Of a DNA stretch of 64,000 nucleotides, positions 1 through 23,923 are shown piece by piece. The position numbers were made by a program, and so were the translations under genes. Within the stretch, counting starts at the first letter, position 1; every line of letters starts with the position of its first letter. The DNA lies in NCBI GenBank assembly GCA_965198065.1, contig CBDAON010000004.1, positions 1,760,001 to 1,824,000 of the forward strand, given 5' to 3'. The stretch comes from Longimicrobiales bacterium (lineage in GTDB: Bacteria; Gemmatimonadota; Gemmatimonadetes; Longimicrobiales; Gaopeijiaceae). Under the pieces are notes generated by a model, which saw nothing but the letters and a program-made list of their open reading frames with translations, was not told the origin of the DNA and made no database searches.

Positions 1-779
1 CCTCCTCCGACCCCACCGGGGAAGAGGTGGATGCCCCAGGAGACCCACGCCTCCGCGGGAATCGTCCGGCACGTGCCCTCAGGAAGGATCTCACCGAACT
101 TGCCCATCGCGTACTCGGTCGAGCGACCTGCGCTCTCGTACGTGCCGTCCTCCAGCAGGAGCTGGAACGTCGAGTTGGCGTGGTGGACGACCGACTTCGC
201 GTTGCCGACCCCGGGCTTCACCTGCAGTGCCTTGATGCAGCGCTCCTCCGCGAGGTTCGTCGGCATCATCGGCGAATACCACATGTCGTTCCCGGCCGCC
301 GGCACCTCGATCCCCGGCGTGCCGATCACGAGGTCCGGAGGTCCGAACTCGGCGGCCATCCTCCACTCATCCGCGCTCGCAAGCTGGATCGGCGGAGGCA
401 GGTTCGCCGGATCGCCCAGCGCCGCGCCCTGATCGACCCAGGCCACGATCGTCGCGATATCTTCCTCGGAAAGCCGCCAGTCCTGCTGCAGATCCTGGAT
501 GCCTACGTCCCTGTCATACGCGTAGGGAGGCATCTGGTGGCTGGCGACCCTCTCGCGGATCATCGGAGCCCACGGACGGATCTCCTCATAGCTCCTGAGC
601 GCCATCGGCCCAATCCCACCCGGCTGGTGGCAGATCTGGCAGTTCTCCTGGATGATGGAGGCGACGTCCTCCGCAAACGTGACCTGCCCGTCGGTCATCT
701 GCGCGGAGAGGTTCCCTCCGAGCATGACCGCCGCCGCGAGCGCGAGCGCTCCCGTCCACCAGTGTAAACGCGTTTTCAT
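1..779 (-). CDS. Secreted c-type cytochrome / copper-monooxygenase-like protein (runs off the window edge)
   Basis: Not in the ORF track because it has no stop inside the window. Manual translation from ATG 779 gives a signal peptide (MKTRLHWWTGALALAAAVMLGG), a CQICH heme motif, QMPP and VVHHA. Confidence 0.7.
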   Translation of the reverse strand, partial: MKTRLHWWTGALALAAAVMLGGNLSAQMTDGQVTFAEDVASIIQENCQICHQPGGIGPMALRSYEEIRPWAPMIRERVASHQMPPYAYDRDVGIQDLQQDWRLSEEDIATIVAWVDQGAALGDPANLPPPIQLASADEWRMAAEFGPPDLVIGTPGIEVPAAGNDMWYSPMMPTNLAEERCIKALQVKPGVGNAKSVVHHANSTFQLLLEDGTYESAGRSTEYAMGKFGEILPEGTCRTIPAEAWVSWGIHLFPGGVGG

Positions 780-901: not shown

Positions 902-1024
902 AGACTGTGCCAAAAACTGCGCCGACAGGGGCCGACTATGGCACAGTCTGACGGACGCACGATCCAGCAGCCCCAACGTTTTCCGACCCCCACCGACACC
1001 AGAAAGGGGCTTGCAAAGCAGGCG
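902..1024. repeat. 123-bp att-like unit, copy 1
   Basis: Begins agactgtgccaaaaactgcgcc and ends ccagaaaggggcttgcaaagcaggcg. Contains the internal inverted repeat agactgtgcca/tggcacagtct. A same-length copy is at 13408-13530. Confidence 0.85.
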
Positions 1025-1048
1025 CTCTCCCAACTGAGCTATGGCCCC
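1009..1048 (-). tRNA. tRNA-Ala(TGC) 5' fragment, about 40 nt, no T-arm or 3' acceptor strand
   Basis: Reverse complement reads GGGGCCATAGCTCAGTTGGGAGAGCGCCTGCTTTGCAAGC, then non-tRNA sequence CCCTTTCTGG. Confidence 0.9.
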
Positions 1049-1181
1049 GTCAGCTTCCGGACCTGTTTGGGGGTCCTGGTTATGCGGCGCAATCTGAAAT
1101 GGCGCCACAGGGCCCATCACTTGGAGTTTTGGTCGTGATGGGGTCTCCTTACCGAGCGACTGTGACTCGCGTCACAGCGGG

Positions 1182-1215
1182 CGCGTAACGTGCATCACCG
1201 CGTAACGTGCATCAC
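1182..1215. repeat. 17-bp perfect tandem repeat next to a hairpin
   Basis: cgcgtaacgtgcatcac x2, preceded by ctgtgac-tcgc-gtcacag at 1160-1177. Confidence 0.85.
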
Positions 1216-1232
1216 AGTGAAGCGGTTTAAAA

Positions 1233-1855
1233 GGTGATTATAGGGAATACTTGATTTCCGCACAAGATCATGTTAACTTTCAGGTACGATAAGATTAGCA
1301 CTGACAGGAGGTTACATGACTCGCCAGGCACCCGGAAAAAGCTATCGGAAGGGGATCAGCCTGATGGAGCTGGCCGATATGTTTCCGACCGAGGAAGCGG
1401 CGGTGAAGTGGTTCGAGGCGTGGCACTGGCCGGATGGCGAGATCGCTTGCATGAGGTGCGGGAGCCTGAACGCCTACCGTGTGAAAAGCGGTCGTCCGCT
1501 GCCGTATCGGTGCCGGGACTGCAAGCGGTACTTCTCGCTGAAGACGAACACGGCGATGGAGGCCAGCAACCTTCCGCTTCGGAAGTGGGCCTACGCGATC
1601 TACCTGGAGATCACGAGCCTGAAGGGTGTGTCGAGCGTGAAGTTGCACCGCGACCTGAAAATCGCGCAGTCGTCCGCGTGGTTCATGAAGCACCGAATCC
1701 GCGAGGGGCTAGCGGCGGAGTGCCGGGAAGTGTTTACCGGGCCGGTCGAAGTTGACGAGACGTACATCGGCGGCAAGGAGAAGAACAAGCATGCCAGCAA
1801 GAAGGCGAACCTCGGGTGCGGCCCGAAGAAACCGGTCAGTGGAATACGCCTGTGA
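1233..1855 (+). mobile_element. IS1595-family element, transposase truncated
   Basis: ORF 1316-1855 has a Zn ribbon (CMRCGS...YRCRDC), an HTH region and VEVDETYIGG. The rest of the DDE domain is missing. Probable left end ggtgattata follows an AT-rich stretch. Confidence 0.85.
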
Positions 1856-1867
1856 ACATGGAAATTC

Positions 1868-3300
1868 GAGTGAGTCCCATCTTTAGTTGAAATTGAAGCG
1901 GCCTCCAACCTCAGGTAACGTGGGTGTGCGACCACACCACGGGATCACAAGAGAGGAAGGAGGCCACCGATGGGAAGGATGCCAAGGCTCGTCGAGCGGG
2001 GCAAGAAGGACCGGCGGCTCGGGGAACCGAGGGAGGTGAGTTGGGAGGAGATCGAGGCGCTGGAGCTGGACCCTCGGGTGGAGCTGATCCGGCAGCTGAT
2101 TCCGCTGGGACTGGCGGAGGTGGGCCGGATGCTCGAGGAGGAAGTGGAGCAACTGGCGGGGCAACGTCACGCCAGGAAGACCGAGGACGATCGACATTGC
2201 CGGCATGGGCATAACCCAGGGTCGGTGCGGTTGGGCGGCCAGCGGCATCCGGTGCGAGTACCGCGGGTGCGAGGCCCGGCCGGAGAGTCGAGGCTGGCGG
2301 CGTATGAGCAGCTGCATGGCTCGCCCGGCGAGATGGACGAGGGGCTGTTTCGGAAGGTGCTGCTCGGGATCTCGTGCCGGGACTACGAGGCAGCGGTCGA
2401 GGCGGTGCCTGGAGCCATCGGGCTGTCGAAGTCGACGGTCTCGCGGGAGTTCAAGAAGGCCACGGCCGCGAAGCTGAAGGAGTTTCAGGAGCGGGACCTC
2501 TCGGGTTACGACGTGGGGTGGCACTCGTCCTGGACGGCAAGAGCTTTGCCGAGGACGAGATGGTCGTCGCGCTCGGGGTGACGACCAAGGGGGACAAGGT
2601 CTTCCTCGGGTTCGTCCAGACCGACACGGAGAACGCCGTGGTGATCCGATCCTTCCTTCGGAGTCTGAAGGACCGAGGTCTCGACCTGTCGGCCGGAGCG
2701 CTCGTGGTGATCGATGGAGCCCGCGGTCTCCGGAGCGGCGTCCTGGCGGTCTTCAAGGGACAGGTGCTCATCCAGCGGTGCCAGTGGCACAAGCGGGAGA
2801 ACGTGATCTCGTATCTGCCGAGAGCGGAGCAGAAGGGCTGGCGCCAGCGTCTGCAGCGCGCCTACCAGCGGCCCACGTACGAAGAGGCCGTCAAGGACCT
2901 CAAGGCCCTGCGCCAGGAGCTCGCGGGGGTGAACCAGTCCGCGGCGGCCAGTCTCGATGAGGGGTTCGAGGAGACCCTCACCCTCCACCGGTTGGGAGTC
3001 TTCCCCCTGGTCGGCCAGTCGCTCAAGACCACCAACGTGCTCGAGTCCGTGAACGCCCTGGCCGAGCAGAGGTGCGGACGCGTGGACCACTGGAAGAACT
3101 CGAGCCAGAAGCACCGATGGCTCGCGACCACGCTCCTGGAGATCTAGTCACGGCTCCGGAGGTTGCTCGGGTACCGACACCTCCCGCTCCTCAGGGCCGC
3201 GATCCAGAAGGACCTCGGGATCACCCTTCCCGAGAGCCGTTCACATGCTGTCGCCTGAGACGGAGGCCGCTCCAGTTTCAACTAACTTTGGGATTGACTC
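1868..3300 (+). mobile_element. IS256-family element, inactive
   Basis: Terminal IRs: left gagtgagtcccatctttagttgaaattgaagcggcctcc; reverse complement of the right end gagtcaatcccaaagttagttgaaactggagcggcctcc. Transposase motifs LVLDG, VIDGARGL, QRCQWHK, TTNVLES. Frameshift near 2515 and in-frame TAG at 3145. Confidence 0.9.
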
Positions 3301-3987
3301 GGGAATCCCGGTGAATGCTGCGCCTGCTACGAATATTGATCCTTTACGAAGAGGCGATGACAGGGAACCATGGATTACTCCAGACGGGAATACCATCTAT
3401 TTCAAGTCCGACAGGCTTGCTACTACCACTCCTCGTAACGCCAGCGATGTTTTCGTCACCCATAAGGTTGAGGGGGGATGGACTGAGCCGGAGTTAGTTC
3501 CATATCCGATAAGCACAGACGCTGGAGACGAGCACTGCCCTATGTTGCTCCAGGATGGCCAGACCCTCTGTTTCGCCTCTTCGAGGGCTGGTGGCTACGG
3601 TGGTTCTGATATCTGGTGTTCACAGGAGGATGAAAACGGGAACTGGCAGGAACCGTGAATCAAGGCCCAAACATTAATACATCAGCTTCCGAATTCCACT
3701 TCATGGAAGACAAAGATGACTGGGTGTACTTTTCCTCAGGCAGACCTGGTGGATATGGCGGCATGGACATCTGGGCTTCCGAGCATCTGGGGCGTGGGAC
3801 GGGGGCTGATGCTTGGGGTCCTGCAGTGAACCTTGGGCCGTCAGTAAACACCGCGGACACCGATATATGCCCTGCTCTTCCGCCGGATGGTGAGACCATG
3901 GCCTGGTTCTCGAACAGAACGGATAACACTCTTGGTCTCTCTGATATCTTCTGGGTTTATAAGAAGGAAATGGGGGTAACCCCCTGA
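3301..3987 (+). pseudogene. PD40/TolB-like beta-propeller protein, IS-disrupted and frameshifted
   Basis: Repeats TPDGNTIYFKSDR, FASSRAGGYGGSDIW, YFSSGRPGGYGGMDIW, AVNLGPSVNT. Frameshift at about 3655. Confidence 0.8.
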
Positions 3988-4237
3988 CTCAATACCGGTC
4001 CTCTAAGGATCCTGAGCCACGGAAGGTTACGACGCGCTTGTCACGAACGGGCGCTTGACCTCCGCGTTTCATCGTGCGGTGTGGTTGGGGCCAAGGTCCG
4101 CCGAAGGTGAGGTGGAGGGTTGGGCCGCCGGGCACGAGGACGAAACCCCTATACTGCAAGGTCTTAGGCCCGTCTAGCGCTTCCCACCCGCCGCGCAACA
4201 GAAGTTCGCAGGAGACGTTAGGAAGCAGCGGCGGCCT

Positions 4238-4342
4238 CCGCGGATGCGCGCATTTCTCGAGGCCAAGCGCAGGTACGACCCCGGCGAGCTCTTCCAGAGT
4301 GACTGGTATCGCTGGCACAGGGACGTGTTCACGGCGAGCTGA
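4238..4342 (+). pseudogene. C-terminal relic of an FAD-linked oxidase, related to 11389-12786
   Basis: PRMRAFLEAKRRYDPGELFQSDWYRWHRDVF* aligns with PRFPDMLRLKRAYDPAELFQSTWYRHYREVF. Confidence 0.8.
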
Positions 4343-4367
4343 TCCGGTCCAGCTCATCCAAGGGCCC

Positions 4368-5153
4368 ATGAAGTCACGACTCCTCACCCTATACGTAGCG
4401 TGCTGGGTCGGAGCGCTGTGGATGCCTTCCTCCAGCGCTTCGGGTCAGGACGTGCGCGTTGGGCCGGACCCTGAACGGATCGAGCGCCCTCAGGCCCCCT
4501 CCGAGCGCGCAGCCCTGCTCGAGACATGGATCGAAGGCGAGCCGGCCCGCTACGACCTACGTTTGCAGGCTGCCCACGAGTACTCGCGAGCCTTCGAGCT
4601 CGAGACGGACGAAGCGCGGCGCAGAGAGCTTGGATACCGTGCGCGGGAGCACGCTCGAGCGGCGGCGTTTCTGGACCCCGTTGGCATCGAAGCGCACTAT
4701 TGGCTGGCGGCGGCCTCCGGCCAGCTCGCCGACATCGAGGGCGGACGAACCAAGATCCGTCTCGTGGAAGAGTCGTGGGACGAGGCGGGGTGGGTGCTCC
4801 GTGCCGACTCGCTGCATGTCGGCGCCCACTTCGTACGGGGTCGCATCAACGCCGGGGTGCAACGAGCGAGCGCGTTCCTCCGCTTCCTCGCGAGGGTTCT
4901 CCTGGGTGCCGATGCCATCGCCGAGACCTCCTGGGAGGCTGCGATCCATCACCTCGAGAAGGCCGCGGAACTCGAGCCCGAGACTCCGATGCACCACTTC
5001 GAGCTCGCACGGGCTTACAAAGACCGAGAACGTCCTGATGAGATGCGAAGGGCCCTCGAGGCGGCCGTAGCTGCCGCCGGCTCCGGCAACCCGGAGGTCG
5101 ACGAAGGATACCGGATCCGGGCAAGGGCCCTGCTGCGGGAGACCGTCGGTTGA
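4368..5153 (+). CDS. Secreted TPR-repeat protein
   Basis: Signal peptide from ATG 4368. TPR-like segments EAHYWLAAASG, HLEKAAELEP and HHFELARAY. Confidence 0.7.
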   Translation: MKSRLLTLYVACWVGALWMPSSSASGQDVRVGPDPERIERPQAPSERAALLETWIEGEPARYDLRLQAAHEYSRAFELETDEARRRELGYRAREHARAAAFLDPVGIEAHYWLAAASGQLADIEGGRTKIRLVEESWDEAGWVLRADSLHVGAHFVRGRINAGVQRASAFLRFLARVLLGADAIAETSWEAAIHHLEKAAELEPETPMHHFELARAYKDRERPDEMRRALEAAVAAAGSGNPEVDEGYRIRARALLRETVG

Positions 5154-5343
5154 ACGCCCTAAGGGCTCCTTACGTGGTCGGCGAACGCGTGTCACCTCAG
5201 CCAGTCAGGTGGCCCGCTCCAGCGCCCGAGATACGACAACGGCGCCCAGCGGGGGTAAGGGACCACGGGGGAACCCGGAAAATTTCTAGCATGATGGCAA
5301 CCGTTAAAGACTTCGCTCGATACCACCGCCTTCGGATCCGTCG

Positions 5344-6051
5344 ATGACCGGGAAGCGGTTTCTTCTGCTCAGAGTGCGGCGGGGGCAACGTCGCCTGCCC
5401 TTTCGAGGCGCCATCGGCCGGCTCCGGCTCCTCGTCTTTCCGATCCTGATTCTCTTCGTCGGGTGTGATTCGCTCTCAGGACCGGACGGAGACGAAGATG
5501 CCGGGGAGCCCTTCGACAATACGTGCCTTCTACCGCCGTTTGCCGCCGCGAGCATTACGCTCGATGGACTGGTCGACGATTGGGCGGGAGTGGATCCTTT
5601 GGCACTCGACGAACAGGGGGACGATTCGCCCTTGTTTACCGGAGATGATCTCCGGGCGGTGTACGTGGCGCAGAGTAGCCAAGATCTATTCGTGCGGGTG
5701 GATCTCTGGGAGACCGTCAATACCAACTTCGGAAACGGCCCTGTCGACGAAGAATACGGCAGATACAACATCGTGATCGAGAACGTCGGATCCTTCCCCA
5801 GGATCGACCTCGGGATAGCTTTTGACGTAGACGCCGGAGGGTGGAGCGTGGGTCACAACGGTGCGAGCTCACAGGTACCGGACGGCTTGGAAGGACCCAC
5901 GTTCGTTGCCGTTGTCGAGTCGGTGATAGAGTTCGGCGTACCCTTGGGCTTGATCGGCAACCCTTCAGGCTATACGGAGGTCCAGGCGGAGGCTCTGACT
6001 ACTGATGCCGTACAGCTGGACGAGGTGGGGCAGGCGTGCGTGGCCAGCTGA
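5344..6051 (+). CDS. Putative lipoprotein with a DOMON/CBM9-like domain
   Basis: Lipobox-like LFVGC. Motifs ITLDGLVDDW, DLRAVYVA...LFVRVDL and IEFGVPL. Confidence 0.55.
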   Translation: MTGKRFLLLRVRRGQRRLPFRGAIGRLRLLVFPILILFVGCDSLSGPDGDEDAGEPFDNTCLLPPFAAASITLDGLVDDWAGVDPLALDEQGDDSPLFTGDDLRAVYVAQSSQDLFVRVDLWETVNTNFGNGPVDEEYGRYNIVIENVGSFPRIDLGIAFDVDAGGWSVGHNGASSQVPDGLEGPTFVAVVESVIEFGVPLGLIGNPSGYTEVQAEALTTDAVQLDEVGQACVAS

Positions 6052-6584
6052 CGTCTGGTAGCGGCTGAGTCGTGGACGGCCGCGTCGTCAGCGGTCGAGG
6101 GTCAGACAACCGCCTCGGGCTCGGCCGCCGGCAGGAGCTGCCATCGGAGCTGAAGCACGAACGACAGGAGTGCCGCGAACGCCCCGATAAGGATCCCGAA
6201 GGTCGAGGTGAGCATCGCGCGCACCAGGGCGGGATCGTCTGCAAAGCGGAGATCCGCGGCGGATGGGATCGAGGCACGGGAGATCGGGGCCGAGCGGTGT
6301 GTCCTACACGGGACCCCCCGGGGGCTGTCCCCCTCCGGGGCTCGCTCCCTCCTCTCGTCTGGCTGGAGACGAGATGCTTCGAATCAATCCCGCCGACCTA
6401 GAAGCCGCATGGCTTGATCTGCGGGACATGGTCGATGCGCTCTTTGGAGAGGGCGCCTACAAGTGCCTCGGGACGTTCGCGTTTCGTCGCGTCTTCGTGG
6501 CCCCTGACGCTGCTCCCCGCGCTGAGGGAGACTAGAGCGAAAAACCGCACACTGTTTCCAACCTCTAGGCCGTTTGCCGCGAGT

Positions 6585-7821
6585 ATGAACCGTCGTGCGT
6601 TACCGCTCATAATGGGCCTGCTTCTTCTCCAACTGGGCTGCGGCCTCCTCGATCCAGACGCGCTCGTGGCTCTTCAGAGTGCCCCGATCGGTGCTCAGCA
6701 GACCCCGGATCCAACGGGCTGGGAGCTGACCGGGATTCCGGCGATCAATTACGACTCCGATGAGGGCTTCGGGTACGGGGTCCTCTTCGAGGCCTACAAC
6801 TATGGTGAAGGGGGATACGCCCCCTATCGGTTTACGCTCCAACCCACCGTGCTCTTGACGACCGGTGGGCGGCGTGACTTCACGGTCTTCTTCGATGCCC
6901 CGCACTTGCTTGCGGCCGGGTGGCGGCTTGATGCCTACCTCAGCAGTGAAAAGCAGATCGCGACCCCGTACTACGGAGTGGGCAACGCTACGCCGTACGA
7001 CGTGACCCTCGACGATGACGAGGGCCCTGACCCGTTCTACTACCGCTTCGGTCGCACACGGCGCAGCGCGACGTTCAACCTGCAGCGGAACGTTGCCGGG
7101 ACTCCCATGAGGTGGCTCGTTGGCGCCGGCCTGGTCCGCACTTCCGTCCTCCCTGTCCCCGAGAACGACGGCACCACGTTGTATGGGATGGATGTCAGCT
7201 CGACGGACCAGACGGCCTGGTCGAACTACGTTCGTGCTGGCCTCGTGTGGGACTCACGGGACCGGGAGACCGGACCTCGCAGCGGCGCGTGGACCGAGCT
7301 ACTAGTACAACGCGTAGACGACACCTTCGGCGCCGACGCGAGCTATACGCGGTGGACGTTTACGGATCGCCGCTATTTCTTCCTCGGTGAGCGAGTCGTT
7401 TTCGCGCACCGCTATCTGCTGCAGAGCGTAGGCGATGGGGCGCCCGTTCACGACCCTCTTTCAGGTGCAGACCTCGTTCAAGCAGCAGGAGGGGCTCGGA
7501 GGCTCCAAGACCGTCAGGGGCATCTTCAAGAACCGATTCGTGGGGCGGAGCATGCTCGTTTGGAATGCCGAACTGCGTTGGCACGCAGCCGACTTCCTTC
7601 TTTTTGGCAGGTCGTTCCACATGGTACTCTCGGCCTTCGTCGATCAGGGCCGTGTATGGGGCGGTGACGTCCGACTCGATGAGCTGCTGGCCGACCTCCA
7701 CCGCGGCTTCGGTGGCGGCGTACGGTTCGGCATGGGAGAGAACTTCATCGTGGCGGTCGACATGGGCCGGTCTGAGGAAGCCGGCATGCCGATGTACATA
7801 GGACTAGGGTATCTGTATTGA
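6585..7821 (+). pseudogene. Omp85/BamA-TamA family beta-barrel protein, frameshifted
   Basis: PAINYDSDEGFGYG, TVRGIFKNRF and a C-terminal YIGLGYLY. Split between two ORFs by a +1 shift near 7455. Confidence 0.8.
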
Positions 7822-8140
7822 TGGCGCCGGAAGTGCAGGTCGCCTCGGAGACGGCCGAAAGCGTGGGCTTCTGGCGCACCGTACTGACCAAGCCCGTCCT
7901 TTCGTGGGCGCTGTACGACCTGGCGAACACGATCTTCTCGATGAACATCGTGTCGCTGCCATCCTCGGTCCCGCGATGTTCGCCCTCGTCTCGGAGACGC
8001 TGGGCTGGGGCAGACGGGCGGCGATGGGAAGTCTCTTGCTGTCGATCGTGATCTCCTGGCTGATCCTACGTGGCGTGTCGGACGAGGAGTGTGAGTGGGG
8101 ACCGGAGGATCAGGTGGCACCCCAGGCCACAGCTCTCTAG
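7821..8140 (+). pseudogene. UMF1/Atg22-like MFS transporter with a large internal deletion
   Basis: N-terminal SWALYDLANTIFSMNIVS is joined directly to C-terminal AAILGPAMFALVS...GRRAAMGSL. Confidence 0.7.
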
Positions 8141-8169
8141 CCCAAGAACCAGTCGAGCGCCCGGCGCGC

Positions 8170-9561
8170 ATGAGTCAGCCCTCCGCCTTCGGCCGAATGG
8201 AACCCTTCATCTGGGATCAGAACGAGCTCTGGGGGGCGCTCGAACGGGAGTTCGTAGCGGCGAAGGGGCGAGGTGGCGAGGCGCTCACGGCCAGTATCGA
8301 TCGTTCCCTGACCTTCGTCAGCGAGCGTCTCGATGAGCTCCGCGCCTCGCGTCCACCAACCGACCCGGCGTTCCGCGAGATAGAGACCGCTTTCTTCGAG
8401 ATCGCTCCCAAGATCGCGGCGTGCCCGGATCGCGTGGGGGAATACGTCGACCTGTACAATCGCGTCCGCTCGTGGGTGAAGGACCAGTCCGTTCACTGGG
8501 ACTTCGATCGGCTCGAGGTTAGACAGACGCTGTACCGGCTCATCTACGGAGGACGCATGGGCCTGGAGGAGGTCATCCTTCAATCTCCGACGGACGCCCT
8601 CGCCTCCACGGTCCTCGTGCGCGATGAGCCGTCGTCGACTCCGTCGACCGTGCTCTACGGCGTTCGTCTCCACAGTGGCGACCTGCTTCTGTCCAGAGGG
8701 GGGACGTCAGCCTCGGCGTTCATCGCTCGCGCTCACGACTACCCCGGCAACTTCTCGCACGTGGCGGTCGTGCACGTGGACGAAGCCCGCGGCAAAGCCT
8801 CGATCATCGAGGCGGACATCAAGGGTGGCGTCCGAACCCGAACTCCGGATGAGTACGTGGCAGAAGACAAGCTGAGGATCATGGTGCTGCGCCCGAGGAG
8901 CGACCTCGGCGAAATCCGCCGTGATCCGCTACTGCCGCATCGAGCAGCCGCCTGGGCCCTCCGTCTGAGCAGATCCCGACGGATTCCCTATGACTTGGCG
9001 ATGGACCGCGAGGACCATTCGAGGATGTTCTGCTCCCAGGTTGCCTATGCCGCGTACAAGCCTCTCGGGCTCAGGCTCTGGACAGGGATGTCGTATATCT
9101 CACGGCCCGGGGTCGGTCGTTGGCTCGCTGCCGTGGGCGTGGAGAACTTCGAGACGCAGGAGCCGTCCGACCTCGAATACGATCCACAGCTCCGGGTGGT
9201 GGCCGAATGGAGGGATCAGAATCGCTTGCTCCACGATCACATGGACAACGCGATCATCGAGGTTCGACTGGACGAGGCGGACCGTGGTGAACCGTTGACG
9301 CTGGCCTTGTGGAAGCTGCCCTTCATGAAGCTCATCAAGGGCTACAGTGTCATCCTCAATGGGCTCGGTAGGGAAGGCCCGGTCCCCGAAGCCATGACGG
9401 CGAGGACGGCGTTGTTGTATATGCGCTTCGGGGAGGTGCACGAAGCAGTGAAGCGACTTGTTGTCCAGGACGTCGAGGACTTCAGGGAGAAGAACCGATA
9501 TCTGCCACCGTATTGGCAGTTGCTGGACATCATCCGCAGGCTGAGGGTGGATAAGCCATGA
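8170..9561 (+). CDS. YiiX/YebB-like permuted papain-like (NlpC/P60) cysteine hydrolase; start uncertain
   Basis: LHSGDLLLSRG, NFSHVAVV, PYD and MFCSQV, with His before Cys as expected for the permuted fold. Confidence 0.8.
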   Translation: MSQPSAFGRMEPFIWDQNELWGALEREFVAAKGRGGEALTASIDRSLTFVSERLDELRASRPPTDPAFREIETAFFEIAPKIAACPDRVGEYVDLYNRVRSWVKDQSVHWDFDRLEVRQTLYRLIYGGRMGLEEVILQSPTDALASTVLVRDEPSSTPSTVLYGVRLHSGDLLLSRGGTSASAFIARAHDYPGNFSHVAVVHVDEARGKASIIEADIKGGVRTRTPDEYVAEDKLRIMVLRPRSDLGEIRRDPLLPHRAAAWALRLSRSRRIPYDLAMDREDHSRMFCSQVAYAAYKPLGLRLWTGMSYISRPGVGRWLAAVGVENFETQEPSDLEYDPQLRVVAEWRDQNRLLHDHMDNAIIEVRLDEADRGEPLTLALWKLPFMKLIKGYSVILNGLGREGPVPEAMTARTALLYMRFGEVHEAVKRLVVQDVEDFREKNRYLPPYWQLLDIIRRLRVDKP

Positions 9562-9998
9562 CCTCGGCAACTTCCGCCCTGTTCCTCTGGGCCCTTCTCG
9601 GCCTTTTCGCCCTTCGCGTCGTCGGGCAGGTCATCGTGATGCTATGGGAGCCTCGTTGGCTGCCCCCACCGAAGCAGTGGTTCTCCGGCCTCGTCGCCTA
9701 TCCGTATCTCCTTCTTTTCCAGGTCCTCTTCCTGGCTCTCATGACGGCGATGATCCTGGGGCTCCACCCTGGCGTGGGACCGTTCGGCTCACCCGGGGCC
9801 GGCTTCTCGGCGTTCTGCGTGTCGTTCAGCGTCCCGTACTACGGGTTCATGATCTATCGATGGGTGTTCAGAGTGCTCAGGAATCCGTCGCGACGCTGGT
9901 TCGACACCCTCATTCCCATCCTCTTCCACTGTGTGCTCGCGACCTTCCTGCTGCTCTACGGTCTCGCTGGACTGCGCCTGGCGGATGGGATGCCCTGA
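9558..9998 (+). CDS. Hypothetical 4-TM membrane protein
   Basis: ATGA overlap with the upstream gene and several hydrophobic helices. Confidence 0.65.
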   Translation: MTSATSALFLWALLGLFALRVVGQVIVMLWEPRWLPPPKQWFSGLVAYPYLLLFQVLFLALMTAMILGLHPGVGPFGSPGAGFSAFCVSFSVPYYGFMIYRWVFRVLRNPSRRWFDTLIPILFHCVLATFLLLYGLAGLRLADGMP

Positions 9999-10011
9999 GC
10001 GGAATCCTCCG

Positions 10012-11184
10012 TCACGTCGACTCGGCCACGGCCCGGGCGGCTCGAGGCGCGTCTCGACGAATCGTGTGGATGGCGCCCGTAGGCCCGTAGACGTGCCCGA
10101 CGAAGTAGAGGTCGGGCTGATCGAGGCTTTGCACTCCGTCGCGCTGCGGAAAGCCCTCCGCGTCGAGTCGCACGAGTCCCTTGAGGAAGCCCACCGCGGG
10201 TCGGTAGCCCGTCGCCAAAAGCACCACGTCGAACCGTTCCTCGCTTCCGTCACGGAAGTGGACTGCTCCGGCGCTGACGCGCACCACTTCGCCTCTCAAC
10301 GTGACGGTACCGGAGCGGATCGCCGCCGGCAGACTGTCTCCGATGAGTGGTGGCTTCGCCAGAACCGGCCAGTCCGGCACCGGGACAGGCGGGCGGCCGC
10401 GAATCAGGCGCAGCGCTCGGTTGGCAGCACCGGCGATCACGCCCGGCAGCGGGTCCGGTAGCTTGCCGAGCAGGACAGACCAGTATTGCGACGGCACCCC
10501 GAGGATCTTCAGCGGCATGACGTGAGCTCCCGACCGTACGGACACCGCCGTCTCCGCCCGCGCCTCGCCGAGCTCGCCTGCGATCTCACCGGCCGAGTTG
10601 CCCACCCCGACGACCAGAACCTTCCGGCCGACGAAGGGGGCGGGGTCACGGTATTCCGAGCTGTGCAGGATCGTCCCCCCGAAGTGGTCCTCGCCCTCCA
10701 GCTGGGCCCGGCAGGGATTGGAGGCGATGCCCGTGGCCACCACCAGGGTGCGCGCCGAGAGCGTCTCGTCCCCCGTGTCGACGAGCCACCCTGAATCGCC
10801 GCGCCGGGCAGAGACGACGCTCGTTCCGGGCCGGATCGGCAGCTCGAAACGCGCGGCGTAGGTCTTGAGATACCGGACGAAGTGGTCCCGTGGCGGAAAG
10901 AGCGGCATGTCTTCGGGCATCACCATCCCGGGTAAGTGGGACAGGTGCTTCCCTGTGTGCAGGATTAGGCTGCGGTAGTAGCCTGCCCAGCTGGCACCGA
11001 CCGCGTCCCTCTCGAGAACGACGTGCTGGACTCCTCTGAGCTTCAACTCACGGGACACCGCGAGTCCCGCGGGCCCGGCCCCGACTACTATGGACGGAAG
11101 GTCGGCCCGAGTGGAGGAAGCGCTGTTCACCGTCCGGGCGAGGCTGTCTCTAAGCCACGGTCGAAGTGCACCGGCCGACGGCAC
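10012..11184 (-). CDS. Flavin-containing monooxygenase (FMO/YUCCA-like)
   Basis: GAGPAG, ILHSSEY, VVGVGNSAGE and LATGY motifs. Confidence 0.9.
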   Translation of the reverse strand: MPSAGALRPWLRDSLARTVNSASSTRADLPSIVVGAGPAGLAVSRELKLRGVQHVVLERDAVGASWAGYYRSLILHTGKHLSHLPGMVMPEDMPLFPPRDHFVRYLKTYAARFELPIRPGTSVVSARRGDSGWLVDTGDETLSARTLVVATGIASNPCRAQLEGEDHFGGTILHSSEYRDPAPFVGRKVLVVGVGNSAGEIAGELGEARAETAVSVRSGAHVMPLKILGVPSQYWSVLLGKLPDPLPGVIAGAANRALRLIRGRPPVPVPDWPVLAKPPLIGDSLPAAIRSGTVTLRGEVVRVSAGAVHFRDGSEERFDVVLLATGYRPAVGFLKGLVRLDAEGFPQRDGVQSLDQPDLYFVGHVYGPTGAIHTIRRDAPRAARAVAEST

Positions 11185-11388
11185 TCGACCCTTCAGCAGG
11201 GGATGCGGTCGAACATGCGACTAGAATGCCGGAGCGATGTTTGTGAGGCTAGGGGCCGGAGCACTGGCGACACCCCCCGCGATCCCTCATCCTGAGACCC
11301 GCAGGCGCCGGATCGCGAATGGGCCGTGTTTCGAGCCCAGCAAGGCCCGCAGGAGATTATCCGCAGTCCCACGATTAGGGAGGCGACT

Positions 11389-12786
11389 GTGAGTGGACCC
11401 AGTGAGCTGGACGTCAACGACTTCCAGTCCAGGCTTAACCCGACGAGAGTGGGACGCATCGAGGCTCCTACGTCCGCGGAGCGAGTCGCTGAGTTGGTCA
11501 GGGAGGCGGGCCAGAACGGGGCTCACGTATGCATAGCAGGCGGCAGGCACTCCATGGGGGGGCAGCAATTCGCGGAGGGTGCTCTCCTACTGGACATGCG
11601 TGAGCTCAACGGTGTGATCTCCCTCGACCGATCGAGCGGCCTGATGGAGGTCGAGGCCGGAATCCAGTGGCCGGACCTCATAGGCTACCTGCACGACGAA
11701 CAGTCGTCTGACGACGCGCCCTGGGCGATCCGACAGAAGCAGACAGGTGTCGACGATGTCACCGTAGGGGGCTCCCTGGCCGCCAACGGCCATGGCCGGG
11801 GTCTCACGCTCCCCCCGCTGGTGTCGGACGTCGAGTCATTCGCACTCATCGACGCCCAAGGGGAAGCTCGGCACTGTTCCCGCACCGAGAACGCGGAGTT
11901 GTTCTCACTCGCGATCGGAGGGTACGGGCTCTTCGGAGTGATGACGCGCGTGACGCTCCGCCTAGAGCCGCGAAAGAAGGTGCGCAGAGTCGTGTCGATC
12001 ATTCCCGTGCGGGACCTGATAGAGCGTGTCGGCGAGCGCATCGAGCGGGGCTTCCTCTATGGCGATTGCCAGTACTCCGTAGATCTCAGCGTCGAAGCCG
12101 GCTCGCACCCCGGTGTCTTTTCATGCTACCAAGAGGTCGACATCGACACGCCGATCCCTGAGGCCACCGCGCATCTCACGTCGGAAGACTGGGCCGGTCT
12201 GTATCGACTCGTGCGGGAGGACAAGGCTCGCGCGTTCCAGGCCTACTCGATGTACTACCTGGGCTCGTCCGGCCAAGTGTACTGGTCCGATACGCACCAG
12301 CTCTCCAGCGTCTTCGAGGGGTACGTCGGCGCCGTCGACGTCCAGGAAGGGACGGAGATGATCAGTGAGCTCTACGTGCGGCGAGAGGACCTCGTCCCCT
12401 TCCTGGCAGCCGCCAGGGCGGACCTCGTTCAGCACGAGGTCGATGTCACGTACGGGACCATCCGCCTGATCGAGCCGGATGAGGAAACGTTCCTGCCGTG
12501 GGCGACCGAGTCCTGGGCGTGCATCGTAATCAACCTTCACGTCACCCACACGGACGAGGGCATGCGAAGAGCGGCGGAGAACTTCCGACGCCTCATCGAC
12601 CGGGCGATCGAGCTCGGGGGGAGCTACTTCCTGACCTACCATCGCTGGGCTACTCGCGAGCAGGTGGAAGCGTGCTATCCGCGCTTCCCGGACATGCTCC
12701 GGCTCAAGAGAGCCTACGATCCCGCCGAGCTCTTCCAGAGCACGTGGTACCGGCACTACCGGGAGGTGTTCGCTGACCGCCTATAA
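11389..12786 (+). CDS. FAD-binding oxidoreductase (aldonolactone oxidase/DprE1-like)
   Basis: GGRHSMGGQ, VGGSLAANGHG, GGYGLFGV, GGSYFLTY and KRAYDP. GTG 11389 follows a GGGAGG RBS. Confidence 0.85.
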   Translation: MSGPSELDVNDFQSRLNPTRVGRIEAPTSAERVAELVREAGQNGAHVCIAGGRHSMGGQQFAEGALLLDMRELNGVISLDRSSGLMEVEAGIQWPDLIGYLHDEQSSDDAPWAIRQKQTGVDDVTVGGSLAANGHGRGLTLPPLVSDVESFALIDAQGEARHCSRTENAELFSLAIGGYGLFGVMTRVTLRLEPRKKVRRVVSIIPVRDLIERVGERIERGFLYGDCQYSVDLSVEAGSHPGVFSCYQEVDIDTPIPEATAHLTSEDWAGLYRLVREDKARAFQAYSMYYLGSSGQVYWSDTHQLSSVFEGYVGAVDVQEGTEMISELYVRREDLVPFLAAARADLVQHEVDVTYGTIRLIEPDEETFLPWATESWACIVINLHVTHTDEGMRRAAENFRRLIDRAIELGGSYFLTYHRWATREQVEACYPRFPDMLRLKRAYDPAELFQSTWYRHYREVFADRL

Positions 12787-13191
12787 CCCCGGTCCGAGGC
12801 GGAACGTCCAGCGCTTGAAGAGAACGAAGGCGACGGGGGTCACGATCAGCAGGGCGAGTGCTTGTCCGAGCGTCGGGTGCAGCCCTCCGACCTCGACGAG
12901 GAGCGCGAGTACCCCGACGGTTAGCACGGAGACGATCAGGCCTACAATCAAGTAGCGTAGGTAGGCGCTCCAAAAGCCTGCGTGCCCGAGCCGGAAAGTG
13001 AAGTAGCGGTTCCCCAGGTACATGAGGACGTTGGAGATGAAGTAGGCCACGACGGAGGCGACGATATAGGCCATGCCGGCCTCGTAGAGCGCTGCGAAGG
13101 CGGCGAGATTCACTACGTATCCGCCGGCGCCTACGAGCACGAACTTGGCAGGTTGGCCGACGAGAGCAGCGAGTCGGGGATGCGCCGTCAT
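12781..13191 (-). CDS. GtrA family protein
   Basis: KFVLVG, NRYFTF and KRWTF motifs; four TM segments. Confidence 0.85.
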   Translation of the reverse strand: MTAHPRLAALVGQPAKFVLVGAGGYVVNLAAFAALYEAGMAYIVASVVAYFISNVLMYLGNRYFTFRLGHAGFWSAYLRYLIVGLIVSVLTVGVLALLVEVGGLHPTLGQALALLIVTPVAFVLFKRWTFRLGPGL

Positions 13192-13407
13192 TCCTTCGGC
13201 CGCCTTCGTGTAGGGAGCGATCGAATAGGCCGTGACGGGCAGCGGAAACGCAAGCTGTCTTACTACCAGTCGTCAGACTCGTCCGAGTCTCCTGAGCATG
13301 GCTTCGATGCCACGATCGACCGCCGGGCCAAGCTCGGCCCTACCGGCTGCGCTGGCGGGTCCCGCCGCTCGCTAAAGCTTAGGTGAGGCCGTGTCGGCCC
13401 CGGATTT

Positions 13408-13530
13408 AGACTGTGCCAAAAACTGCGCCAACGCCCACCGACGCTGGCACACTCTGACCAACGCTCGATTCAACGATTCCAGCGCCTACGGACGCCCACC
13501 GACGCCAGAAAGGGGCTTGCAAAGCAGGCG
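13408..13530. repeat. 123-bp att-like unit, copy 2
   Basis: Same ends and length as 902-1024 with a diverged middle. Keeps only gcttgcaaagcaggcg of the tRNA-Ala sequence. Confidence 0.85.
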
Positions 13531-13549
13531 GAATGGTCCTTACCAGGTC

Positions 13550-13789
13550 CTAAGGATCCTCTGGCGCGTCCGAATCCCCAGCGTCTTCGAGCAGCGCCCT
13601 GGCCCGCTCTGCTTCGCTGCTATGGACCAATATCCGGGCCTGCCCGGATAAAGACAGGCCGGCATACATCCCACCTGCATCATCCGCAAGGAGCATCGCA
13701 TCGATTCCGGCCGCGCGGAGCGTTTCAAGCGTAAACTCCGCCTCAAGCCGGTACCTAAACGTAGCCACTACTACCGTCTCATCCGCCAT
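13550..13789 (-). CDS. DUF2007 (putative signal-transducing) protein
   Basis: VATFRYRLEAEF...LRAAGI...ARILVHSSEAERARALL. Confidence 0.8.
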   Translation of the reverse strand: MADETVVVATFRYRLEAEFTLETLRAAGIDAMLLADDAGGMYAGLSLSGQARILVHSSEAERARALLEDAGDSDAPEDP

Positions 13790-13878
13790 GAGCCAAGAGC
13801 CCTGAGGTGACTAAAAGCCCAAGAAACGACAGTCGTTAAGAACGCCTGGGCATGGAACTACCCTCGCAACCCGGGACA

Positions 13879-13995
13879 CTACCGGCACCAATATTGGAGC
13901 TTCCCCCGCTCCGCCACGACCCTTAACATAGTTTGGCGATCCACCTTGTCGTAGACCCGCCGGATCGTCTCTTCGCTCCTCCAGCCACCGACTTC
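13879..13995 (-). pseudogene. Tyrosine recombinase/integrase C-terminal relic
   Basis: Manual translation EVGGWRSEETIRRVYDKVDRQTMLRVVAERG matches box II G(H/W)...T..Y. An in-frame stop lies just upstream. Confidence 0.6.
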
Positions 13996-18571: not shown

Positions 18572-19780
18572 ATGCAGGCGATGTTGACGTGGCTCGACCT
18601 GACGGCGAGCGACCGGGACAAGATGCGGCGCGTGCTGGATCTGTTCAAGGAGCAGGGCACGCTCGACGAGATGGGGATCGGGAGCCTGCGGGACGTGCTG
18701 TCGGACGCGCTGTTTCCCGGCACGTCGTCTATCCAGACCCGACTGCGGTACGTGCTGTTCATCCCGTGGATCTATCGGCGGTTGGAAGATCGAAAGGTCC
18801 GGGCCGCCGAGGTGGAGCGAGCCGCTCGGAAGGCCGAGGTTGATCTCATCGGCCCGCTCGAACGGAACTCGGACAACGCGGGGATCATCGGCCAGAGGGC
18901 TCGGGGCTCGCTCGTACGGTTGCCGAGTTCCGTCTATTGGAGCGCGCTCACGCGGTGGGGCATATTTCAGCCCCAGCAGAGCCTGGGTTGGTACCACTCA
19001 CGCTTCGATGCGCTCGTGGATGGACGCGGCGTTGTCGGGCGAGCGGACGATCCGGGCGTGATCTGGAGCCAGCAGGCGCATTGGCATCCGCGGCTGCCCG
19101 AGCCGCCAGCGGGGTTCCCCTGGGAAGCGTCATTCGCGTTGACCCATGACGAGGCCGACTTCTTGCGCGGCCGCATGGAGGAACGGTGCGCGGGCACCCT
19201 GCTGGCATGGCTGGTGCGGAACGGATCGGATTCGCCGGCGGAGAACGTCTGGGAGGATCCCGATGCGCTGCGCGCCCCGGAGAGGATTCGAGACATCTTG
19301 GAACTGGCGCGGCGGTTCTCGCTCCACGTCGAGGGCATGCCGCTGCTCTACAACCTGCTTGTGGCGGAACGCCGGCGTGACGTCCTTGACTCAGACGAGG
19401 ACAAATCGATCGACGAATTCCGGGCAGGCCTCGCCGAGTGGGCAGCCGGGGAGGCCGACGAGGACCGCCCGTTCGAGCCTGATGCGCTTTGGCAACTGGT
19501 CGTCCAGCGTGGTGGACGCCTCCCGTATCCGCAACGCGTCTTCATCGAAAGCTGGTCGCGACGGATCGCCGAACTGGGTCCCGACAGGGTCGCCGATGAC
19601 AATCGGTTGCGGACGTTGGTCACCGAACGCGAGCTCTGCCTCAAGGGCGCACGGGCACGGCTGGCGAACCGGAACCGCCTGATGGACTGGATGCCAGGGG
19701 TCGGTGTCGGGCGGATGGACTTCCGCTGGTTTCGGGTCCGGCAGTTCATGATCGACCTGCACCGGGGGGTTGCCGCCTGA
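18572..19780 (+). CDS. DUF6361-family protein (Azaca-like component)
   Basis: LTWLD, GTLDEMGIGSLRD, LFPGTSSIQTRLRYVLFIPW and PSSVYW. Confidence 0.8.
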   Translation: MQAMLTWLDLTASDRDKMRRVLDLFKEQGTLDEMGIGSLRDVLSDALFPGTSSIQTRLRYVLFIPWIYRRLEDRKVRAAEVERAARKAEVDLIGPLERNSDNAGIIGQRARGSLVRLPSSVYWSALTRWGIFQPQQSLGWYHSRFDALVDGRGVVGRADDPGVIWSQQAHWHPRLPEPPAGFPWEASFALTHDEADFLRGRMEERCAGTLLAWLVRNGSDSPAENVWEDPDALRAPERIRDILELARRFSLHVEGMPLLYNLLVAERRRDVLDSDEDKSIDEFRAGLAEWAAGEADEDRPFEPDALWQLVVQRGGRLPYPQRVFIESWSRRIAELGPDRVADDNRLRTLVTERELCLKGARARLANRNRLMDWMPGVGVGRMDFRWFRVRQFMIDLHRGVAA

Positions 19781-21618
19781 TGCTCCCGCCGGACTCGCGC
19801 ACCACCGCTTTCGAGCTGATCCGCCCGCCGAGCGGATACCGCCTCGACTTCGCCGTGCTGACCACCTACACGCTCGATCTGGAAGCGCTGCTCGTGCTGC
19901 CCTTGTCGGTGCTCGTACACTCCGACAGAGGCTTGGAGGAGCTGCTGGCAGATCCGCTTCGGCTGCATCAGGCGATCCGGGACGCCGGCGATCGCGTGCA
20001 TGCCTTCGTCGACGAAAAGGGCATCGCGATTCCGCGTGGCGCGCGCTCGCTGTACTCGATGCTCGAGTCGAGCGTGCATCCCGTGCGCGCACCGAACCGC
20101 GGCGCCTTCCATCCCAAGGTGTGGGTGGCCCGGTTCATGGCGGTGGACGAAACGGCGGAGGACCTGCTGCGGGTGGCGGTCCTGTCGCGGAACCTGACCT
20201 TCGACCGTTCCTGGGACATCGCACTGGCGAGCGAGGCCCTGCTTCGGAGCAGGCGGCGCGTGGCCGCGAGCCGGCCGCTGCATGACTTCCTCGTGGCGCT
20301 GCCGCAACTGGCCACCAATCGCATCCCAGAGGGCATCGTGGAGCGTGTCGAGGAGCTCGCCGATCAGGTCACGCGAACCGCGTTTCCGGCCCCCGACGGC
20401 TTCGATTCGCCGATCGAGTTCCATGCGCTCGGATTGACACGCGGGCGTCGAACCTGGAGCCCGCCGTCGAGTGGCTATCGCACGCTCGCCGTAGCCCCGT
20501 TCGCCAACCAGACGGGGCTCGACGCGGTCAGCCGGCTGGGCGGAAACGACCGGATACTGGTGAGCCGGCAGGAGGAGCTCGACAAGCTGTCCAAAGACGT
20601 GCTCGCCGAATGGAACGAGGTATTCGTCCTGTCGGATACCGCCCAGGGCGAAGCCGAGGATGGTCCGGCCGAGACGGACGAGGACGATTCCGGGACGGGT
20701 GCAGACGCTCGCCCGTCGGGGCTGCACGCCAAGATGATCGCCGTGGAGCACGGTTGGGACGTGACGTGGTCTGTCGGCTCCGCGAACCTGACCTCGGCGG
20801 CGTTCGCCGGCAGCAACGTAGAGATGATGGCGTCCGTCACAGGCAAGAAGGGGCGCAAGGACGGCGCCAGCGGTTACGGCATAGATCGCTTCCTCGACGG
20901 CGGATTCCAGAAGCTGTGCGTGCCGTATCAGAGGGTCGAACCGGAGACGGTGGATCCGCGCGTGACCGACGCACGGGCGCGCCTCGAGGCGGCGCGCGAC
21001 GCCCTCGTGGACGCCGCTCTGCGAGTGACTTGCGTTTCCGAGAGTGATCTCTGGACGTTGACGATCGACAGCGTCGCTCTGCCCGCCGACGATGTCGAGG
21101 TTGCAGCCTGGCCCGTCTCGGTTCCGGAAGACCAGGCCTGCCGGCTGCCGGAACCGTTGCGCTGGAGGCTGCCGGTCGCGCGCCTGACCGCGTTCGTCGC
21201 CTTCAGGATGAGTGTCCCGGTACGGGGTGTGGACGACATCCGCATGACCCTGCGGCTTCCTGCCGAGGGAATGCCGGAGGACCGGATACATCAGTTACTC
21301 AGAACCTTGCTGGACAGCCCCGAGAAGTTCCTGCGGTTCCTGAGGGCGTTGCTGGGCGGGCTCGACGCCGTGCTCGGCTGGGCAAAGGATGTCGGAGAAG
21401 GGAACGGCAAGGGCGACTGGGGAGTCGGCGGCGGCGGCGAGACCCTGCTCGACGACCTTGTCCGCACCGCGTCCAGAGAACCGGAGCGCCTCGAGCCCGT
21501 CCGCCGCCTGATCGACGACCTGCGGAAGACGGATGAAGGGCGGCGTATCGTGCCGGACGAGCTGTTCGCTATCTGGATGGCTGTCGACGAGGCGCTCGCA
21601 CCGGAGCCACGTTCATAA
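19780..21618 (+). CDS. Phospholipase-D-family (PLD nuclease-like) protein
   Basis: TTYTLDL, FHPKVW...SRNLT and LHAK...GSANLT. TGATG overlap with the upstream gene. Confidence 0.85.
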   Translation: MLPPDSRTTAFELIRPPSGYRLDFAVLTTYTLDLEALLVLPLSVLVHSDRGLEELLADPLRLHQAIRDAGDRVHAFVDEKGIAIPRGARSLYSMLESSVHPVRAPNRGAFHPKVWVARFMAVDETAEDLLRVAVLSRNLTFDRSWDIALASEALLRSRRRVAASRPLHDFLVALPQLATNRIPEGIVERVEELADQVTRTAFPAPDGFDSPIEFHALGLTRGRRTWSPPSSGYRTLAVAPFANQTGLDAVSRLGGNDRILVSRQEELDKLSKDVLAEWNEVFVLSDTAQGEAEDGPAETDEDDSGTGADARPSGLHAKMIAVEHGWDVTWSVGSANLTSAAFAGSNVEMMASVTGKKGRKDGASGYGIDRFLDGGFQKLCVPYQRVEPETVDPRVTDARARLEAARDALVDAALRVTCVSESDLWTLTIDSVALPADDVEVAAWPVSVPEDQACRLPEPLRWRLPVARLTAFVAFRMSVPVRGVDDIRMTLRLPAEGMPEDRIHQLLRTLLDSPEKFLRFLRALLGGLDAVLGWAKDVGEGNGKGDWGVGGGGETLLDDLVRTASREPERLEPVRRLIDDLRKTDEGRRIVPDELFAIWMAVDEALAPEPRS

Positions 21619-23826: not shown

Positions 23827-23923
23827 TCATTCACTCATATCTGACGGCACCGTGATCAGCCATGATCGATAGCTCATTCACTCGTATCTGACGGCACCGT
23901 GATCAGCCATGATCGATAGCTCA
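23827..23923. repeat. 47-bp tandem duplication with one mismatch
   Basis: tcattcactc(a/g)tatctgacggcaccgtgatcagccatgatcgatagc x2, covering the next start codon. Confidence 0.92.

Follow-up and report, generated by a model that had tools for sequence, protein, structure and literature searches.

Probable left ends of tyrosine-integrase elements at tRNA-Ala(TGC) 5' halves in a Longimicrobiales genome

Introduction

Genomic islands that displace a 5' tRNA fragment, tandem arrays of them and integrase-less remnants are already known in print. In the cited part of the Islander paper (Hudson, Lau and Williams, PMC4383910), 159 of 3919 islands have a 5' fragment and 125 tandems are counted. Cis-mobilizable elements (CIMEs), as the cited part of a review describes them (PMC5704250), have lost their integration and transfer genes, retain their attachment (att) ends and come to lie in stacks as further elements arrive at that site. 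The ssrA islands of Dehalococcoides stand in tandem at a tRNA gene (tDNA), 15 without an integration module and 16 with one, according to the sections cited here (PMC3146451); in Prochlorococcus, cargo of the tycheposons accumulates at tRNA genes by repeated visits, with partial tRNAs and degenerate elements, and the integrases cluster by target tRNA (bioRxiv 10.1101/2020.12.28.424599, cited in part). Here we describe two 123-bp direct repeats in a 64,000-nucleotide stretch of DNA from a Longimicrobiales bacterium ("the window": positions 1,760,001 to 1,824,000 of contig CBDAON010000004.1, GenBank assembly GCA_965198065.1). They are probably the left ends of tyrosine-integrase elements that were stacked in the anticodon loop of tRNA-Ala(TGC) and were later displaced from it by a rearrangement. 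The window's own genome (G000) comprises 3.05 Mb in 4 contigs, one of 2.87 Mb; coordinates on the window's contig are preceded by C4, and all others are window positions.

Results and Discussion

Anatomy of the repeats

The repeats lie at 902-1024 (copy 1) and 13408-13530 (copy 2) and are identical at 98 of 123 bases without a gap; the equal length and the shared 22-bp start on which a sequence-only reading of this DNA had drawn attention to them are thus real. Identity is complete over the outer 22 bases at the start and the outer 26 at the end, and falls to 50 of 75 in the middle. A chance origin is excluded: the BLAST alignment of the two copies has E = 8e-25, and the 13-mer that terminates the arm occurs at only six sites in the 3.05-Mb genome (the five arms described below and a site just upstream of the intact tRNA). 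The recurring CCGAC/CCAAC motifs that had been pointed out are indeed present, five times in copy 1 and four times in copy 2. The internal inverted repeat, reported for both, is perfect over 11 bp in copy 1 (902-912/939-949) but limited to 7 bp in copy 2.

Read on the minus strand, both copies consist of a portion of the tRNA-Ala(TGC) 5' half fused to an arm of about 107 bp and fixed length, so that the arm sits downstream of the tRNA half, a refinement of the earlier description. The 40-nt tRNA-Ala 5' half into which copy 1 had been said to run (1009-1048) is identical to positions 1-40 of the sole intact tRNA-Ala(TGC) gene in the genome, at C4:2098473, while copy 2 retains positions 25-40 only. 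ARAGORN finds no tRNA in the window, and Rfam gives a single match over positions 1-30000, at chance level. A contig from a second study (run X4, 13181-13706) covers copy 2 with zero differences. Position 1009 is not spanned by any contig listed, but the junction of tRNA and arm is found again at C4:2089377, at C4:2093619 and in relatives, which makes a misassembly there, a danger the sequence-only reading had raised, unlikely. At position 961 the contigs of runs X1, X2 and X8 have A, like the duplicate left of the window, where the window has G, which may be an assembly error or a strain variant. Sequencing runs with a low share of matching words, some of them labelled sponge metagenome, were left out of account for habitat.

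Arms and the intact tRNA-Ala gene

Five arms are found in G000: the two in the window, one lying 1.8 kb to its left (a tandem duplicate), and those at C4:2089377 and C4:2093619. In four of the five, the tRNA-Ala sequence reaches position 40. The pair at C4:2089377 and C4:2093619 stands in tandem on the strand of the intact tRNA-Ala(TGC) gene, 9.1 and 4.9 kb upstream of it; the window copies are 325-337 kb from that gene and on the opposite strand. The arm of copy 1 matches the three arms other than its duplicate at 78-83 of 108 bases. The further copy to the left and the intact gene had both been proposed as things to look for; with them, and with the integrase family described below, the unit is not a dispersed repeat lacking any link to tRNA-Ala or to integrases.

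The cargo that goes with each arm lies to its left, GtrA and the oxidases for copy 2 and a cytochrome c-like gene for copy 1, and both window repeats are same-side ends (attL-type, on the P' side). The cytochrome c-like gene has a 94.6% duplicate, with a shorter copy of the arm, at C4:1757547-1759228, left of the window, and a 96.8% copy directly upstream of tRNA-Pro(TGG). At least six copies of this gene (about 430-450 aa, 93-97% identity) are present in G000, at the tRNA-Pro locus, behind Ala arms and in a tandem group (window 3-779; C4:117974-119541, 1757547-1759092 and 2779596-2785308).

Several other observations concern the tRNA genes themselves. Element arms flank the intact tRNA-Ala(TGC) gene (C4:2098473-2098545) on both sides, and both of its halves may be element-derived. 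A tRNA-Ala 3' fragment nearer to the gene of the same-genus genome G001 is found at C4:1219083-1219124, about 880 kb off, next to genes whose counterparts in G001 are neighbours of tRNA-Ala; the tRNA-Ala gene of G000 seems to have departed from its ancestral site. The 5' halves of tRNA-Val(TAC), twice, and of tRNA-Gln(TTG), once, are fused to other sequences (C4:534770, 2444063 and 929053), and additional 5'-type integrase families seem to act in G000. Adjoining the island region left of the window are 18 tRNA genes within 2.4 kb (C4:1710874-1713237).

Partner arm and integrase in relatives

The arm query matches 12 of 301 genomes of the order Longimicrobiales, G000 included, where the arm is fused to the 5' halves of five tRNA types: Pro(TGG), Ala(TGC), Arg(CCT), Val(TAC) and Thr(TGT). 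Over 14 aligned sites representing all five, arm length is fixed and there are no internal gaps, which fits the earlier proposal that the conserved ends are protein-binding sites; in the "diverged middle" that formed part of it, the family alignment reveals conserved motifs spaced 10 bp. The inverted repeat is absent from most Pro-type arms. Identity to the tRNA stops near positions 38-41, and CTGC is found on the 5' strand of the anticodon stem in 13 of the 14 rows, where it is plausible as a putative core-binding site.

A second arm with the same terminal motif, which would be the P arm to the P' arm of the repeats, precedes the tRNA start at 31 places, spread over 25 of the 301 genomes (a reversed control gave 5 matches). 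A 4.7-kb contig of G017 holds the arm, an HTH_17 gene and an integrase. Seven of the nine integrases closest to the arm-side seed lie directly upstream of a P arm and tRNA start and point away from the tRNA, the other two having no tRNA within the DNA fetched; the L135 integrase points away from its tRNA. More remote homologs lie downstream of intact tRNAs. In a tree of 37 rows, from a quick search only, a branch with a Shimodaira-Hasegawa-like approximate likelihood ratio (SH-aLRT) support of 99 sets the 11 rows labelled 5'-type apart from all others, including the 13 labelled 3'-type. An integrase family of opposite polarity, as the sequence-only reading had postulated, is thus found, its clade adjoining the P arm and the tRNA start; 5' polarity and tandem stacking hold by the association of arm, tRNA and integrase in relatives, with the crossover presumably in the anticodon loop.

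A complete 24-kb element at tRNA-Ala(TGC) in G280 displays the whole arrangement, from the 5' half with its arm to the integrase, the P arm and the intact gene. Junctions in which a P arm, a tRNA half and a P' arm follow one another occur in G300, G403, G408, G218 and one metagenome contig. In G300 (L058:2275-11621), a unit at tRNA-Pro(TGG) has a single gene of 2818 aa, with GH94/glucoamylase domains, between complete att arms. No integrase of the 5' clade was found in G000 or in the single-contig genome G010. G000 has 34 tyrosine-integrase matches, but none in either of the two blocks beside its intact tRNA-Ala; the integrase adjoining that gene is downstream and outside the 5'-type clade. 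In the P arm preceding the intact tRNA-Ala, a search for sigma-70-like promoters gave 0 where 0.0 were expected. In viral contigs, 0 of 48 pattern matches passed the tRNA filter. No account of this integrase clade was found in a literature search that left most subscription journals outside its coverage; the Islander island lists might hold members of it.

In a second group of sites (L158, L167, L173, L198, L200, L201 and further metagenome loci), the same terminal motif lies farther upstream of the tRNA start. The tRNAs of this group, Ala(TGC), Arg(TCT) and Val(TAC), are different in sequence, and an integrase is present at 5 of 39 distinct sites, there pointing toward the tRNA and ending at the motif.

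The att layout that we propose follows the lambda-type model of integration. The incoming circle would carry an attP composed of P arm, tRNA 5' half and P' arm; crossover in the anticodon loop would leave the old 5' half and the P' arm upstream and rebuild the gene downstream, behind the P arm, and every new arrival would shift the older blocks farther upstream. Blocks would thereafter lose their integrase and decay through insertion sequence (IS) insertion and deletion, and a segment of about 135 kb with three of the five ends would subsequently have been inverted and displaced. In this scheme the crossover point, the function of the arm sites and the order of events are inferred.

The block between the repeats

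A model of the proximal P arm was made from 29 arms, using bases outside the search pattern; leave-one-out scores run from 5.1 to 29.2, and the 95th percentile for random sequence is -4.9. The model reaches 15.5 on AT-rich DNA without a tRNA half and was therefore applied only at tRNA halves. It gives 10.8 before the intact tRNA and 18.2 at C4:2093619, and values below the random 95th percentile before copy 1 (-9.4), before copy 2 (-10.4 to -12.5) and at C4:2089377 (-10.7). Position 6148, the sole candidate for a far end, has no P arm. No tyrosine integrase was detected in window positions 1-27000 with a home-built hidden Markov model (HMM) that finds it in three autonomous controls.

The sequence-only reading had suggested that 1049-13530 may be one integrated unit. 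An intact unit from a single integration, excisable between the copies, would agree with the position of the block between two successive scars of the right polarity, and 3430 to 13944 was contiguous before a deletion in the lineage of run X8, a sister strain; we nevertheless regard it as very improbable, and it is largely refuted already by the same-side ends, a right end that lacks a P arm, a left end with only 16 tRNA bases, the lack of an integrase, the IS1595 and IS256 sequences beside copy 1 and several gene fragments inside. The block is instead what remains of one or more blocks between two successive scars, and is not intact. Features of the block and its surroundings are collected in Table 1.

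Comparison with an empty site, one of the checks proposed at the outset, gave a single candidate, the join of 6147 to 13533 in X8 (one contig, depth 4.8), and it was rejected: it cuts the end of an ExbB/TolQ-type gene that is continuous in 5 of 5 homologs, there is no P arm at 6148, and the cutting of a conserved gene end marks it as a later deletion. A joint from 9364 to 13642 was likewise rejected as an excision product, since the window's own contig accounts for it (IS3 end to copy 2). The search for excision junctions, also suggested then, saw none in the contigs of six runs, from which rare variants drop out.

Table 1. Coordinates of features in the window
Start	End	Strand	Feature	Remarks
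3	779	-	Start of cytochrome c-like gene	Cargo after the arm of copy 1
902	1008	-	Arm of copy 1, probable P' arm of an att site	Terminal arm motif 904-920; partial inverted copy 939-949
1009	1048	-	tRNA-Ala(TGC) positions 1-40; presumed crossover in anticodon loop	Identical to the gene at C4:2098473
1049	1315		Sequence upstream of copy 1, not a P arm	Unique in genome; no match in 60 relatives
1316	1855	+	IS1595-family transposase fragment
1855	3306	+	IS256 (Mutator-family) copy	Several in genome
3245	13191		Mixed cargo without integrase	PD40 pieces, TPR protein, split Omp85-like gene, C92 peptidase, flavin monooxygenase, FAD-linked oxidase, GtrA
6101	6218	-	3' remnant of MotA/TolQ/ExbB-family gene	Crosses 6147/6148
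6148	13532		Stretch absent from sister strain	Run X8, single contig, depth 4.8; read as derived deletion
13408	13514	-	Arm of copy 2, probable P' arm	105/108 identical to arm at C4:2093657, near intact tRNA
13515	13530	-	tRNA-Ala(TGC) positions 25-40	Anticodon-stem 5' side, loop and 2 bases
13550	13789	-	DUF2007 gene	Stops 19 bases short of copy 2
16090	17376	+	IS3-family copy	Inverted relatives at C4:2082956 and 2088253, beside tRNA-Ala array
37960	38835	-	D-amino-acid transaminase-like core gene	Synteny marker for the rearrangement

The stretch just upstream of copy 1 has a short palindrome at 1161-1176 and, at 1182-1215, a tandem repeat of 17 bp; this region, 1161-1215, is possibly an arm of another integrase family. 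Farther along the window, a DUF6361 gene, a 612-aa gene without a family match and a helicase-like gene stand in a row (18572-23510) that looks like a defence module, and a 47-bp tandem duplication, 98% identical, lies at 23827-23920, at the edge of a low-GC island.

Displacement from the tRNA gene

Three kinds of evidence, namely the gene order of relatives, an inverted GC skew and orphan fragments of tRNA-Arg, point to a former position of the window segment beside the tRNA-Ala(TGC) gene. Skew at fourfold sites is -0.023 in the 74 genes of C4:1787-1891 kb and +0.029 in 476 flanking genes (p = 2e-6), and the minus-strand genes taken alone show the same reversal. At its right end the segment has three orphan 3' fragments of tRNA-Arg(CCG) (C4:1880213-1891923), inverted with respect to the intact gene at 2066624, and at its left end the three orphan Ala arms. 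If the segment were flipped into the gap at 2067-2089 kb, the Arg and Ala fragment sets would both fall in order behind or before their genes. Two synteny markers, the transaminase-like gene of the window and a gene located 11 kb beyond the intact tRNA, are on one contig in 10 of the 40 relatives searched; they are co-oriented and 9-14 kb apart in eight of these, 44 kb apart in a ninth and far apart in the complete genome G006, and in G000 they are opposed and 311 kb apart. In G001, apbE lies about 4 kb from lysC, and this pair too is split in G000. Around tRNA-Ala itself, the loci from relatives were short and of no use for synteny. An explanation by one inversion between IS3 copies was considered and rejected, the skew at 1897-2054 kb being normal.

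The distance and opposite strand of the window copies, and a copy 2 with just 16 bases surrounding the core, might also reflect insertion into secondary sites that are not tRNA genes and are remote from tRNA-Ala, and similarly truncated halves are found in G251 and G218. Copy 1 has the full 40-base tRNA half without a P arm, however, the only candidate far end at 6148 has none either, and synteny, skew and the orphan Arg fragments put the segment beside the tRNA array, all of which leaves this origin extremely unlikely. Another possibility is that the array is contiguous in the cell and the 135-kb segment was misplaced or misoriented at IS repeats during assembly. Near-identical IS3 and IS256 copies are dense in both regions, and the short-read contigs break at every repeat and are blind to long-range order; but the genome is in 4 contigs, including one of 2.87 Mb, local joins match contigs from two studies, and setting the order right would mean undoing more than one misjoin. 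We give such an error hardly any credence.

A number of points weigh against stacking at tRNA-Ala(TGC) followed by displacement. Recombination was not observed, and the cognate integrase is assigned from adjacency in other genomes alone; the G000 integrase closest to the clade is 37-45% identical to it and groups with the 3'-type, and the genome is 87.6% complete. The missing excision junctions count here as well, with the same reservation about contigs, and the scheme does not account for 1049-1315. IS flanks gave no rearrangement breakpoints, and swapped IS flanks were not seen. Besides G006, where the markers are far apart, the remaining genomes have them on separate contigs or lack them. 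Finally, tRNA-Ala(TGC) is outside the marker interval in the 5 relatives examined, so the gene itself would have moved there in an earlier, unexplained step.

Cargo blocks without an integrase

A clade integrase or its remnant lies within 1.5 kb upstream at 7 of the 30 P-arm sites fetched and is lacking at 23, two of the latter offering only 600 and 11 bases to inspect. Of similar metagenome sites, 13 distinct ones extend 1.5 kb or more upstream, and three of these have a clade integrase. Nine blocks between tRNA halves, from 1.1 to 29 kb, contain no tyrosine integrase by the HMM (positive in the three autonomous controls), and some integrase-free units have one or two genes between complete arms. 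Integrase remnants are present at 2 of the 30 P-arm sites, and one integrase is interrupted by an IS. Such cargo is explained by decay after accretion, which is already in print for CIMEs, the Dehalococcoides ssrA islands and tycheposon islands. Between metagenome-assembled genomes of different genera, cargo and arm are 98.4% identical over 8.5 kb in one pair (G351/G218; L322/L323) and 98.9% over 3 kb in another (G404/G392; L324/L325); this may be transfer or, short contigs being involved, misbinning.

The same blocks can be read as purposely kept gene cassettes, small, integrase-free and complete in both arms, which would depend for movement in trans on a visiting integrase of the clade, the tRNA serving as an integron-like platform. 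The 23 sites and nine blocks without an integrase, the one- and two-gene units with both arms complete and the two cross-genus pairs (98-99% identity) agree with this, as does the gene behind copy 1's arm, which also precedes the tRNA-Pro P arm in G000. The remnants and the IS-interrupted copy speak of decay, the window's own ends are damaged, the clade integrase is missing from what was found in G000 and G010, the cross-genus identities are on short contigs open to binning errors, and integrase-less tandem islands have already been read in print as cis-mobilizable remnants; we consider such cassettes quite unlikely. A broader version, unlikely in our estimate, would be a tRNA-anchored cassette system of the Longimicrobiales in which one clade, flipped to 5' polarity and with a single arm design, retargets among five tRNAs with CTGC in the anticodon stem by exchange of the tRNA half of attP alone and moves small integrase-free cassettes in trans between loci and genera, the window being the stranded end of an array.

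If the left-end assignment is right, the window is a well-resolved case from a minority class (islands with a 5' fragment make up 4% of those in Islander, going by the cited part of PMC4383910), in which the arms and the probable integrase clade can be named for an order that has been little studied. The orphan tRNA halves record a 135-kb rearrangement, and island finders would discard them. If cargo-only units turn out to move in trans, this clade would collect genes in the manner of an integron, and retargeting of the integrase through the tRNA half of attP, if true, would make it a candidate tool for site-specific insertion in Gemmatimonadota.

Comparison with known systems

As in the 5'-fragment islands of Islander, which have an anticodon-centred att site, so far as the cited part of that paper describes them (PMC4383910), there is a tyrosine integrase, a split and restored tRNA, a 5' fragment displaced upstream and a tandem array. 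A tDNA end fragment with its cognate intact tDNA on the same replicon is present in G000 (1009-1048 against C4:2098473). A fragment in the same orientation 2-200 kb upstream is found at C4:2089377 and 2093619; the window copies, in opposite orientation and more than 200 kb from the gene, drop out at that filter. A tyrosine integrase inside the island, present in the 24-kb element of G280, is lacking in window positions 1-27000 and in the two blocks beside the intact gene. Unlike in the cited Islander account, a clade-level arm is followed here through five tRNA types.

Like CIMEs, the cargo is stacked at one site without integration genes, and a Pfam scan and the integrase HMM find neither integration nor transfer genes in the block. 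The window block does not keep both attL and attR, there being no P arm before copy 1, whereas the 4.9-kb block that ends at the intact tRNA does. CIMEs, as presented in the cited part of the review (PMC5704250), derive from integrative and conjugative or integrative and mobilizable elements and use 3' gene ends; here the polarity is 5', the autonomous relatives look phage- or satellite-like, and the block is without an intact right end. A resident integrase platform, as in integrons, is absent from G000, which has no clade integrase and whose downstream integrase lies outside the clade.

The Dehalococcoides ssrA islands differ, on the cited sections (PMC3146451), in their serine recombinase, tmRNA target, downstream stacking and 20-bp repeats, where long arms are found here. 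The tycheposons, in the part of their description cited (bioRxiv 10.1101/2020.12.28.424599), have another host and integrase group, while in the Longimicrobiales one clade and one arm design extend over five tRNA types, with many cargo blocks that have both arms.

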